Source of the DNA: Thermoanaerobaculia bacterium
Lineage (GTDB): Bacteria > Acidobacteriota > Thermoanaerobaculia > Multivoradales > JAGPDF01
Reading direction: 5' to 3'
Assembly (NCBI GenBank): GCA_963712855.1
Contig: CAVQJN010000001.1
Coordinates: 358,612 to 422,611, forward strand
Length of the DNA: 64,000 bases
Shown here piece by piece: positions 43,164 through 43,650 of this stretch. Both the position numbers and the translations under genes were made by a program. The first letter of the stretch is position 1, and the number at the start of each line of letters is the position of its first letter. The notes beneath the pieces are model-generated. The model was given only the letters and a program-made list of their open reading frames with translations. It was not told the origin of the DNA and did not search any database.

Positions 43164-43650
43164 GAGCCTCTCTGGTCGAGAGGCTGGGATGCGGCCACAT
43201 CTTCCGCTCAGATGGGACCCCAGAGATCCACCGAGGAAGCTGTGGACGCATACCGGACCCACGGAATGCCAATCACGATCTGGCGCCGGAGCCTCTCTGC
43301 CCGAGGGGCCGGGATGCGGCTACATCTTCCGCTCAGATGGATCCCCGAAGATCCACCGAGGAAGACGTGGACGCATACCGGACCCACGGAATGCCAATCA
43401 CGACCTGGCGCCGGAGCCTCTCTGCCCGAGGGGCCGGGATGCGGCTACATCTTCCGCTCAGATGGATCCCCGAAGATCCACCGAGGAAGACGTGGACGCA
43501 TACCGGACCCACGGAATGCCAATCACGACCTGGCGCCGGAGCCTCTCTGCCCGAGGGGCCGGGATGCGGCTACATCTTCCGCTCAGATGGATCCCCGAAG
43601 ATCCAACGAGGAAGACGTGGACGCATACCGGACCCACGGAATGCAAAACA
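43164..43650. repeat. Tandem repeat array B: 125-bp unit x ~3.9 (copies at 43164, 43289, 43414, 43539), related to array A
   Basis: Units B2 and B3 are identical. Array B shares with array A the core gagcctctctgcccgaggggcNgggaNgcggctacatcttc and ...ataccggacccacggaatgcc. The period is not a multiple of 3. Confidence 0.85.

Follow-up and report, generated by a model that had tools for sequence, protein, structure and literature searches.

Two tandem arrays of hairpin-forming units in a Thermoanaerobaculia bacterium look like a lineage-specific intergenic repeat

Genomic context of the arrays

The DNA analysed is a stretch of 64,000 nucleotides from the genome of a Thermoanaerobaculia bacterium (Acidobacteriota), referred to in its full length as the window. 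It contains two tandem arrays, each behind a gene for a small protein, with the following features in and around them.

37636–38031, plus strand: gene for a 131-aa signal-peptide protein, with an AGGAG ribosome-binding site (GC3 0.93)
38193–38835, plus strand: array A, units A1–A4 (TRF, unit alignment, self-blastn; covariance model R1, 126–134 bits)
38835–38904, plus strand: near-perfect hairpin of ~70 nt adjoining the end of array A (DNA fold −26.8 kcal/mol, z −5.7)
42454–43128, plus strand: gene for a 224-aa secreted protein (GC3 0.90)
43148–43665, plus strand: array B, units B1–B4 (TRF, unit alignment, self-blastn; covariance model R1, 137–155 bits)
43654–43668, minus strand: terminator-like hairpin and T-run at the far edge of array B (consensus scan, pattern match only)
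43684–43724, plus strand: 41-bp remnant similar to the sulfatase 3′ end (blastn to 42219–42259, 80% identity, E 4e-4)

Both arrays share the orientation of the gene ahead of them, and the distance is 168 nt from the 131-aa gene to array A and 35 nt from the 224-aa gene to array B. A consensus scan of the sequence between each gene and its array, and of the units themselves, returned no terminator-like site and no sigma-70-like promoter. A small hairpin without a T-run is located behind the stop codon of the 131-aa gene. Judging by its pattern, the minus-strand terminator-like site beyond array B would end a convergent PAS-GGDEF gene and thereby shield the array.

As direct repeats, the arrays flank a 4.3-kb segment with pepF, the sulfatase gene and the 224-aa gene. 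The hairpin adjoining array A is placed 75 nt ahead of the pepF start (its match to mir-35 was below threshold and is considered spurious), and the ribosome-binding site of pepF, GAGAGGC, is the exact complement of GCCUCUC, a motif discussed below. The locus has been rearranged, as seen from the sulfatase remnant (ESIARLEALAYLP against ESIAQLKALGYLP), a truncated aldehyde dehydrogenase, a pepF that appears disrupted by three out-of-frame stretches within 38980–40830, and a gene order changed with respect to the relative L056. The 131-aa protein resembles the product of the gene that follows a 225-aa gene in L056 (27% identity, E 4e-13); in the relatives, the homologues of the 224-aa and 131-aa genes are adjacent, and here each one is followed by an array. 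Pfam scans of the 39 proteins of the window and of the peptide of the array A open reading frame (ORF) detected no transposase, RAYT, Y1 transposase, recombinase, integrase or partition gene.

Organisation and divergence of the units

The initial annotation described array B as four tandem copies of 125 bp, which both TRF (43157–43662, period 125, 4.0 copies, 95% matches) and the register of the units (43164–43663) confirmed. Array A has a longer period (TRF 38202–38823, period 170, 3.7 copies, 95% matches). Self-similarity sets in 7 nt 5′ of A1 and 16 nt 5′ of B1.

38200–38369, 38370–38539 and 38540–38709, plus strand: units A1, A2 and A3 (170 bp each), followed by the truncated A4 at 38710–38835
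43164–43288, 43289–43413, 43414–43538 and 43539–43663, plus strand: units B1, B2, B3 and B4 (125 bp each), B3 being identical to B2
38319–38363, 38489–38533 and 38659–38703, plus strand: 45-bp segment present in array A units only (alignment columns 120–164)

Two sequence blocks had been named as common to A and B, and each does occur eight times in the window, always on the plus strand (0.00 and 0.01 matches expected from shuffled sequence), but the homology extends beyond them, the units of A and B aligning without gaps over the first ~117 columns with ~85% identity. The insert of array A that is absent from B likewise exists, although with a length of 45 bp rather than the ~55 bp first estimated; in it, a TGA is followed by AAGGAG, from which 9 nt lead to the GTG that opens the next unit. 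Each unit consists of a 12-nt C/U-rich tail (GAGCCUCUCUGC), a ~90-nt imperfect hairpin with conserved outer arms and a variable centre, whose 3′ outer arm is an invariant 20-mer (TACCGGACCCACGGAAUGCC), and a linker of 36 nt in array B and 81 nt in array A. Columns 3–11 of the tail are invariant in all eight units, and the 20-mer and a 9-mer are essentially invariant across units against a background divergence of ~15%. The fixed differences between A and B are unevenly distributed, 13 of the 18 falling in the central 46 columns (p = 0.005).

Units of the same array are 93–100% identical and differ at 0–16 positions, as compared with 18–30 between arrays. The most divergent unit, B1, is located at an edge, a variant at column 115 is common to A4 and B4, and column 22 has the same first-to-last pattern in both arrays. 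Taken together, these observations point to concerted evolution and to an ancestor that already possessed several units.

An independent short-read contig (L055, Logan ERR11571143) is 100% identical to window positions 41672–43271 and stops exactly where B1 enters repeated sequence, which is how an assembly should behave at a genuine repeat; this confirmation covers the B1 end of array B. With filters off, covariance model R1 retrieved from the 64-kb window only the eight arrayed units, the next match (15.6 bits) being in coding DNA. The ‘solo core’ proposed in the initial annotation near 42300 did not hold up: it departs from the 21-mer at four of 21 positions, and its covariance-model score of 8 bits (E = 4) is at chance level.

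Secondary structure and covariation

Two competing structures can be drawn for the 5′ part of the units.

43301–43389, plus strand: long imperfect hairpin of B2 (unit columns 13–101, 33 pairs; RNA and DNA folds)
43291–43309, plus strand: alternative 5′ hairpin H1, GCCUCUC / GAGGGGC (columns 3–9 with 15–21; sequence and folds)

The long hairpin recurs in every unit (for example in A2, 38382–38470) and leaves the 5′ tail unpaired. In B2 it has a free energy of −52.7 kcal/mol as RNA (z −3.1) and z −3.9 with DNA parameters, the other unit folded as DNA reaching z −3.0. Three of the four plus-strand units tested fold better as RNA than shuffled controls (z −2.5 to −3.1); B1, at z −1.8, was equalled by 12 of 200 shuffles. 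The whole of array B folds with z −5.5, every unit independently inside the full array. The invariant C/U-rich tail GCCUCUCUG supplies the 5′ arm of H1, a hairpin that forms at the expense of the base of the long one. Pairing in H1 is perfect in B1 (43166–43184), where the minimum free energy (MFE) structure uses it, and forcing H1 together with a 3′ hairpin costs 2.4–6.6 kcal/mol over the long hairpin.

Across the aligned units, 90.5% of the pair cells form pairs, against 36–46% when the partners are slid by 1–3 columns. The change from T-A in array A to C-G in array B, to which attention had first been drawn, does preserve pairing, and structural alignment places it at homologous columns in both arrays (42/72). 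Two further pairs change on both sides, namely 27/87 (A-U in array A, U-A in array B) and 33/81 (a series of U-A, U-G and C-G). In B2–B4, the stem that holds 42/72, the central one of columns 32–42 with 72–82, also includes an A.C mismatch at 36/78 and a U.G pair at 33/81, and array A has uncompensated changes that produce a G.G at 30/84 and mismatches in the apical stem at 53/64 and 54/63. Of 500 shuffles, 311 had at least as many pairs with both sides altered, an unremarkable result. As to the folding energy, on the plus strand 19 random substitutions raised the MFE from about −49 to −36 ± 5.6 kcal/mol (a loss of ~12–13), whereas the real sister array keeps −48 to −50 kcal/mol despite ~16% differing positions (p = 0.01–0.03). 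The fold is kept across the arrays.

From the conserved structure the initial annotation had concluded that selection, rather than junk duplication, was at work. The retention of the fold between arrays agrees with the first half of that argument; selection acting on an RNA or DNA structure is not established. Effectively, only the lineages of A and B are independent, B1 counting as a partial third, so the covariation is suggestive and not a proof, and tests of the R-scape type have no power. In quasi-palindromes, moreover, templated repair between the arms can yield apparently compensatory changes that need no selection. The case illustrates the limit of covariation arguments when the paralogous lineages number two. 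As to the strand, G.U wobbles occupy seven paired positions on the plus strand and would occupy two to four on the minus strand, an asymmetry that is not significant, and the MFE of array B is −56.9 kcal/mol on the minus and −48.3 kcal/mol on the plus strand; neither measure decides the strand.

Coding potential and distribution

The GC3 of the arrays is 0.59–0.67 in every frame on both strands, compared with 0.90–0.93 in seven flanking genes, and neither period (125 or 170) is a multiple of three. The array peptide has no Pfam match, and a three-frame translation of array B found no match at E ≤ 10 among 5.8e9 proteins. The units are non-coding; a coding repeat or small ORFs were rejected on GC3, period and missing homologues.

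No Rfam family was matched at gathering thresholds in the whole window, and at E ≤ 5 the region 37900–43900 gave nothing credible, just two sub-threshold matches to miRNA models; ARAGORN found nothing. CRISPR, tRNA arrays and self-cleaving ribozyme or viroid-like multimers were also considered and rejected, with no spacers, cas genes or ribozyme model match. Scanning for DNA homologues with the 19-mer TACCGGACCCAYGGAMYGC as a probe produced single matches at 19 loci in genome contigs and 35 loci in metagenome contigs, none of which extends in blastn; these are chance matches. Two pattern scans of viral contigs gave no match, nor did blastn of both arrays against plasmids or of array A against phages. 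Synteny was checked around the best-matching homologues of the 224-aa protein (L056–L064, 61–70% identity): at seven relatives' loci the array is absent by both blastn and covariance model, mostly with no intergenic room for it, and no exact copy of the 131-aa or the sulfatase protein is on record. Among the collections and patterns covered by these searches, this genome is the only one in which the family was seen. The absence from the seven relatives' loci, from the viral, plasmid and phage sets and from Rfam, together with the chance nature of the 19-mer matches, argues for a young and lineage-specific repeat.

The 3′ end of an epimerase gene was once considered as the origin (a lead from L049) and was rejected: no such gene was found on the source contig, and the relatives of L049 are Desulfobaccales-like. 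The lead is left as an unexplained coincidence.

Comparison with known repeat families

A close likeness is with the REP, BIME and REPIN elements of Enterobacteria and Pseudomonas, which are GC-rich imperfect palindromes, extragenic and usually found in transcripts just 3′ of genes. REPINs are hairpins of ~70–110 nt in which the arms are conserved and the centre varies, as in these units, local tandem runs can arise in BIMEs and REP clusters, and in array A the central stem is bracketed by CTAC...GTAG, whereas array B has GTGG in place of GTAG. Unlike in REPs, the palindrome here is ~90 nt, roughly three times REP length, its arms are not palindromic REPs, and its sequence resembles that of no known REP family; neither a short 20–40 bp palindrome with a GTAG/CGTC tag nor an inverted doublet was found. 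ERIC and other MITE-like elements (the 127-bp ERIC, Correia elements) resemble the arrays in a unit of ~125 bp with a long imperfect hairpin across most of it, in their intergenic position co-oriented with neighbour genes and in having a longer variant with an internal or adjacent extra segment. Those elements, however, are solitary dispersed insertions with terminal inverted repeats and often target-site duplications, whereas here hairpin and linker run head-to-tail, no solitary copy was seen in the 64 kb, and the array edges are inside the linker with no duplicated target.

The MIRU VNTRs of Mycobacterium are likewise direct tandem repeats of tens to ~100 bp between co-oriented genes of a high-GC genome, with a homogenised interior and divergent edge units; they differ in occupying dozens of loci, in lengths that fit short overlapping ORFs and in having no 90-nt hairpin core. 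A CRISPR shares the regular spacing, the palindromic element and the non-coding location, but here the whole period of 125 or 170 bp is repeated, far over the 23–50 bp of a CRISPR repeat, there are no unique spacers, and Pfam scans detected no cas genes or domains in the window.

Proposed origin and role

Both arrays look like a lineage-specific repeat of the REP/ERIC type rather than a proven new RNA. They most likely represent a hairpin minisatellite akin to REP/BIME/ERIC elements, young and restricted to its lineage, with a single ancestral array behind both copies, and they are probably transcribed as a structured 3′ UTR, a reading deduced from orientation: the arrays are co-oriented with their upstream genes, and terminator or promoter sites between them were not found. 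The full proposal, in which both arrays are one orphan family of non-coding, hairpin-unit minisatellites with the history and the 3′-UTR role outlined here, is plausible, and we put it forward tentatively. A tandem duplication downstream of a secreted-protein gene would have created a single multi-unit array, which local rearrangement may then have duplicated or split. The copies would have diverged by ~15%, with unequal crossing-over or gene conversion homogenising the units within each. Read-through on the plus strand from the upstream gene would transcribe both arrays into a long 3′ UTR of stacked stable hairpins, which could act, as in REP/BIME or ERIC, as a barrier to 3′-to-5′ exonucleases or a factor-independent transcription stop; such roles of REPs and MITEs in mRNA stability and termination have been described (Delihas 2011, PMC3184786; Di Nocera 2013, PMC3733652). 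The arrays would stay recombinogenic as DNA, and the hairpin may be maintained by weak selection on the 3′-UTR role, by palindrome-templated repair, or by both.

Several observations sit uneasily with the minisatellite model. Classical REP, ERIC and REPIN elements are dispersed in tens to hundreds of copies and no solitary copy was found in these 64 kb, the window has no RAYT or transposase gene, all units are direct where REPs in BIMEs alternate in orientation, and the evidence for the strand is weak. A sequence-specific function, superfluous to the model, could also lie behind the perfect conservation of the 20-mer and the 5′ tail. If this conservative reading is right, the arrays are one more lineage-specific intergenic hairpin repeat and not a new principle, although they can mark a strain and signal that the locus was rearranged recently.

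Alternatively, the arrays could be a functionless minisatellite, an intergenic segment with a hairpin whose tandem copies stem from slippage or unequal recombination and whose second array stems from one segmental rearrangement, the hairpin persisting through the short time elapsed and through pseudo-compensatory templated repair between the palindrome arms. We regard this as possible but rather unlikely. It agrees with the absence of matches in any collection searched and of arrays at the relatives' loci that were fetched, with a clearly rearranged region, with changes that weaken pairing in array A (30/84, 53/64 and 54/63) and with the unremarkable count of pairs changed on both sides; the uneven spread of substitutions, the full folding energy of the sister array (p = 0.01–0.03) and the near-invariance of the 20-mer and 9-mer against 15% divergence do not fit it well.

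Another explanation, which we consider unlikely, is a 3′-UTR-derived array of structured sRNAs similar to CcsR1–4 of Rhodobacter, or the titration of an RNA-binding protein by repeated hairpins. RNase E or RNase III would cut in the A/U-richer single-stranded linker AAUGCCAAUCA, freeing hairpin RNAs of ~125 or ~170 nt, whose free C/U-rich, anti-Shine-Dalgarno-like 5′ tail GCCUCUCU would pair with purine-rich sites such as the GAGAGGC before pepF. The layout of four homologous structured units directly 3′ of a small protein gene and co-oriented with it, present at both loci, matches that of ccaF1-ccsR1–4, in which sRNAs of four ~100-nt tandem structured units derive from the 3′ UTR of a small gene and mature through RNase E, and which also has a conserved C/U-rich anti-Shine-Dalgarno-like motif and loci prone to duplication and rearrangement (PMC8034643). 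The tail is invariant in 8/8 units and unpaired in the long-hairpin fold, the competing H1 could mask or expose it, the fold is kept between arrays, and the complementarity of GCCUCUC to the pepF site is exact. That last match is non-specific, as any C/U-rich 7-mer complements Shine-Dalgarno-like sites. CcsR units, furthermore, have two short hairpins with a CCUCCUCCC-type loop motif, whereas here the motif is in the 5′ tail of one long 40-bp rod, a shape seldom seen in bacterial sRNAs that act in trans; the gene ahead of the array does not belong to DUF1127, the phylum is another, and no Rfam model of any kind matches. Any regulatory role would be very recent, because the family is missing from the relatives.

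The bolder version of the sRNA explanation, that these are previously unknown structured RNA clusters of Thermoanaerobaculia-like Acidobacteriota processed from the 3′ UTRs of secreted-protein genes, appears still more doubtful to us. Rod-shaped hairpin RNAs of ~125 and ~170 nt, each with the invariant anti-Shine-Dalgarno-like tail and the invariant 20-nt arm, would then target ribosome-binding sites in trans or soak up an RNA-binding protein as a multivalent sponge, with the competing 5′ hairpin as a switch for the tail. To our knowledge, hardly any regulatory RNAs have been described in Acidobacteriota. Should the units be expressed and processed, they would constitute a young tandem sRNA cluster caught soon after birth, and paralogous arrays with a compensatory change would be a model for sRNA families arising from 3′ UTR repeats.

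A DNA-level element, with the repeated 20-mer and the palindrome as binding sites for a DNA-binding protein or recombinase, or with the two direct arrays as recombination substrates for excision or amplification of the 4.3-kb segment, seems improbable. Its favourable side is that direct arrays flank this segment, that folding as single-stranded DNA is significant (z −3.0 and −3.9) and that the outer arms are the conserved part, like ends recognised by a transposase or RAYT, but recombinase, RAYT, integrase and partition genes are absent from the window, relatives that have no array keep the flanked genes in their ancestral order, and a unit of 125–170 bp far exceeds known iterons or operators.

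Hardly credible, finally, is a reading of array A as tandem genes for 46-residue peptides (38370–38510 and 38540–38680), with array B as a decayed copy: AAGGAG-N9-GTG, a strong Shine-Dalgarno at the correct spacing from a GTG start, does precede each ORF in A2 and A3, with an in-frame TGA stop inside the 45-bp segment, yet the ORF GC3 is 0.60 against 0.90–0.93 in real genes, the A/B codon differences in its frame are 11 non-synonymous and 6 synonymous, array B has a 125-bp period with neither start nor stop, no Pfam domain matches, and no similar protein was found among 5.8e9, even though the query carried long shared words such as AYRTHGMP.

A third tandem array reported by TRF, at 16337–16764, is an unrelated coding repeat of 42 residues.

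Arrays A and B are homologous throughout their units

Within the window, Tandem Repeats Finder reported two large arrays of non-coding sequence, array A (38202–38823; period 170, 3.7 copies, 95% matches) and array B (43157–43662; period 125, 4.0 copies, 95%). In register, their units are as follows.

38200, 38370 and 38540, + strand: starts of the three full units of array A (170 bp each)
38710–38835, + strand: truncated unit A4
43164, 43289, 43414 and 43539, + strand: starts of units B1–B4 of array B (125 bp each)

The initial annotation had described array B as four 125-bp units related to array A, and the period, the copy number and the alignment of the units agree with this. 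It had placed the relationship in two common blocks; each of these does occur exactly eight times, on the + strand only and with about zero expected in shuffled sequences, but MAFFT aligned all eight units without gaps across the first ~117 columns, so that A and B are homologous well beyond the blocks. The insert of ~55 bp said to be missing from B exists as an extra segment of array A, with a size of 45 bp (columns 120–164). Per 116 positions, 18–30 differences are found between arrays and 0–16 within them. The 'solo core' proposed at 42300 is noise: it departs from the 21-mer at four positions, and the covariance model of the unit gives it a score of 8 bits (E=4). An independent short-read contig (L055, Logan ERR11571143) is 100% identical to window positions 41672–43271 and ends exactly where B1 enters repeated sequence, which is the assembler behaviour expected where a repeat is true. 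Overall, the original observation is confirmed: this is a real element, structured and non-coding.

Coding potential

The arrays are non-coding. Third-position GC (GC3) of the units is 0.59–0.67 in all six frames, compared with 0.90–0.93 in seven neighbouring genes, and neither 125 nor 170 is divisible by three. Each full unit of array A ends with TAAGGAG-N9-GTG (38347–38372, 38517–38542 and 38687–38712), in which AAGGAG-N9-GTG combines a textbook ribosome-binding site with a start codon, the genome having 68% GC. The 46-codon ORFs opened by this GTG (38370–38510 and 38540–38680) stop inside the 45-bp segment and were rejected as genes on the basis of their GC3 (0.60), non-genic codon usage and codon differences from array B (11 non-synonymous versus 6 synonymous). 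The ORF has no Pfam match, and the three-frame translation of array B, despite long words in common with it, matched none of 5.8 billion proteins. A third tandem repeat in the window (16337–16764; period 126, 3.4 copies, 82% matches) is unrelated to both arrays, being a 42-residue coding repeat (RIVEPPVELDHPPIETL...) in a 678-aa AMIN-domain protein (15451–17487).

Hairpin fold and its retention between the arrays

The fold of each unit is a single long imperfect hairpin (columns 13–101, 33 pairs), with + strand RNA energies of −45 to −53 kcal/mol. Of four + strand units tested as RNA, B1 had a z-score of −1.8 and the others −2.5 to −3.1; with DNA parameters, the two units folded gave −3.0 and −3.9. 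Within the fold of the whole array the units fold independently. A second conformation, consisting of a 5′ hairpin (3–9/15–21), a central stem and a 3′ hairpin (84–92/99–107), costs 2.4–6.6 kcal/mol in stability, and the minimum free energy (MFE) structure of B1 includes its 5′ hairpin. The − strand folds too; G.U wobbles occupy 7 paired positions on the + strand versus 2–4 would-be wobbles on the − strand, counts from which the strand of the element is only weakly assignable.

Of the pair cells in the alignment, 90.5% are paired, as opposed to 36–46% when partners are slid by 1–3 columns. Seventeen pairs are invariant, six changed on one side and still pair, and three changed on both sides. 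The T-A to C-G swap from which selection on structure had been argued does lie at homologous columns (42/72; U-A in A, C-G in B). Both sides also change at 27/87 (A-U in A, U-A in B) and at 33/81 (U-A in A, U-G in B2–4, C-G in B1). Introducing 19 random substitutions into one consensus, in the transition/transversion proportions observed, took the + strand MFE from about −49 to −36 ± 5.6 kcal/mol, whereas the true sister consensus retained −48.3 or −49.7 kcal/mol (p = 0.03 and 0.01); the − strand gave an asymmetric result (p = 0.004 and 0.20). The structural argument is partly supported. The fold was kept between the arrays, but some changes are uncompensated: G.G at 30/84 and two apical-stem mismatches in array A, and A.C at 36/78 in B2–4. 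Substitutions are concentrated in the hairpin centre, with 13 of the 18 fixed A/B differences within columns 42–87 (binomial p = 0.005). Almost no variation among units is found in the 5′ tail GCCUCUCUG, the 20-mer TACCGGACCCACGGAAUGCC or the outer arms.

Gene neighbourhood

The arrays are found in the following context.

33721–35820, + strand: NB-ARC STAND ATPase, GC3 only 0.62 versus about 0.9 elsewhere
35846–36703, − strand: truncated aldehyde dehydrogenase (profile positions 12–212 only)
between the preceding and following genes, − strand: 'Sensor' membrane protein
37636–38031, + strand: 131-aa signal-peptide protein, followed by array A
38835–38904: near-perfect hairpin of ~70 nt, separating array A from the start of pepF
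38980–40827, + strand: pepF (M3 oligoendopeptidase F)
40875–42260, + strand: sulfatase
42454–43128, + strand: 224-aa secreted protein, followed by array B
43654–43668, − strand: terminator-like hairpin with T-run
43684–43724: sulfatase 3′-end remnant (41 bp)
after the remnant, all − strand: PAS-GGDEF protein, aldehyde dehydrogenase, Ser/Thr kinase

Each array is co-oriented with the gene immediately upstream; array B starts 35 nt past the stop codon of the 224-aa gene, and the stop codon of the 131-aa gene is followed by a small hairpin without T-run. Neither a sigma-70-like promoter nor a + strand terminator-like hairpin with T-run was picked up by a consensus scan within the arrays or ahead of them; its sole + strand terminator-like site is far downstream, within pepF (40550–40566). 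The neighbouring genes that were read through are intact, full-length ORFs except for the truncated aldehyde dehydrogenase and pepF. The latter can be aligned over its whole length, in one frame, with its 617-aa orthologue in the relative L056 and contains three out-of-frame stretches, with in-frame stops at ~39943 and ~40445 ahead of the natural stop; it is either a decaying pseudogene beside array A or the site of a local consensus error. The 41-bp remnant just past array B is 80% identical to the sulfatase 3′ end (42219–42259; ESIARLEALAYLP against ESIAQLKALGYLP) and looks like a scar from local duplication. The hairpin at 43654–43668, partly formed from the altered 3′ end of B4 (GCAAAACACGCC replaces GCCAATCACGACC), is terminator-like for the convergent PAS-GGDEF gene.

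Distribution and inferred history

The source contig is 1.67 Mb long and homologues carry the label Thermoanaerobaculia. In a syntenic relative (L056/L057; 66% identity in the 224-aa protein), the genes run in the order pepF, a small ORF, sulfatase, a 225-aa gene, a 126-aa gene, a 74-aa gene and aldehyde dehydrogenase (− strand), with no array. The 126-aa gene of L056 (10877–11257), directly after the 225-aa gene, is the homologue of the 131-aa gene (27% identity, E 4e-13); a pair of neighbours there is apart in the window, with one array behind each member, and the locus has therefore been rearranged. Five other relatives (L058–L064) likewise have no array, and a convergent gene lies within ~25–80 nt of the homologue of the 224-aa gene. 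The conserved 19-mer gave isolated matches only, none extending, in genome and metagenome collections, and viral, plasmid and phage searches gave no matches; the repeat family is thus an orphan within the data reached.

One of the chance 19-mer loci, L049 (692–767; Ga0335071_10000530), was singled out by the covariance model. Here, and also in L003 (4009–4077), an NAD-dependent epimerase gene has the 19-mer at its 3′ end (...DLPEGIRRTVAYYRTHGTHYW*), with the 13-mer TCTGCCCGAGGGG plus CCGG 33 nt upstream. In L049 this stretch (TCTGCCCGAGGGG..CCGG) is identical to unit columns 8–20 and gives the same hairpin base without the unit's 59-nt centre, the upstream alignment scoring 27 versus 15.8 ± 2.9 in 35 other loci. 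Judged by this likeness, the outer arms could descend from a coding 3′ end. The relatives of L049 are Desulfobaccales-like, no epimerase gene of that kind appeared from the source contig, and we provisionally treat the resemblance as coincidence.

High identity within arrays, the equality of B2 and B3 and the divergence of the edge unit B1, the greatest of all, are typical of repeats evolving in concert through unequal exchange. Both last units (A4 and B4) have C at column 115, and column 22 has the same first-versus-last pattern in A and B, which suggests that a multi-unit array predates the A/B separation. Together with the signs of local rearrangement (altered gene order, the sulfatase remnant, the truncated aldehyde dehydrogenase and the disrupted pepF), these common variants point to a local duplication or translocation by which one ancestral array was copied or split.

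Nature of the arrays

The arrays form hairpins whose fold is kept and whose arms are conserved around a variable centre; they are co-oriented with the genes upstream and absent from the relatives. The interpretation with the most support is that of a hairpin minisatellite, young and restricted to its lineage, of the REP/BIME/ERIC/REPIN kind. No dispersed copies were found in 64 kb and no RAYT among the window proteins, the units are in direct rather than alternating orientation, and the palindrome is too long for those families; the arrays are therefore classed only as the same kind of element and not as a family member. Transposase, RAYT, integrase, cas and reverse-transcriptase domains were all absent from the 39 window proteins scanned and the array A ORF peptide. 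Hairpins of REP/ERIC-type repeats may block exonucleases or stop transcription (PMC3184786, PMC3733652). Read-through from the upstream gene would transcribe each array as a structured 3′ UTR, whose stacked stable hairpins could block 3′ exonucleases or stop transcription; transcription, its strand and a stabilising role are all presumed here.

The main functional rival would be an array of 3′-UTR-derived sRNAs like CcsR, whose layout is matched (PMC8034643). The invariant unpaired tail GCCUCUCU complements the pepF ribosome-binding site GAGAGGC, a complementarity expected of any anti-Shine-Dalgarno-like motif. That the arrays are a novel cluster of processed sRNAs in Acidobacteriota appears improbable to us. 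A purely neutral minisatellite is plausible but disfavoured by the non-uniform substitutions and the retained folding energy. We regard the element as an orphan repeat belonging to a familiar kind, and any function as hypothetical.

Other features of the window

The hairpin at 38835–38904 (arms GGGGACAGCT.CCAATTTTC ... GAAAATTGG.AGCTGTCCCC) has a DNA fold z-score of −5.7 with no T-run after it. It might serve as a terminator or operator, or be a scar left by rearrangement; a sub-threshold match to mir-35 was spurious. The region 30475–36703 is probably an island of foreign or defence type; it encodes a 474-aa protein without Pfam match, an HNH_2 endonuclease-domain protein (31856–32908), the NB-ARC/STAND ATPase and the truncated aldehyde dehydrogenase. 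Two PAS-GGDEF diguanylate cyclase genes of the same domain layout are present (10203–11168 and 43747–44700, both on the − strand), one of which converges on array B.
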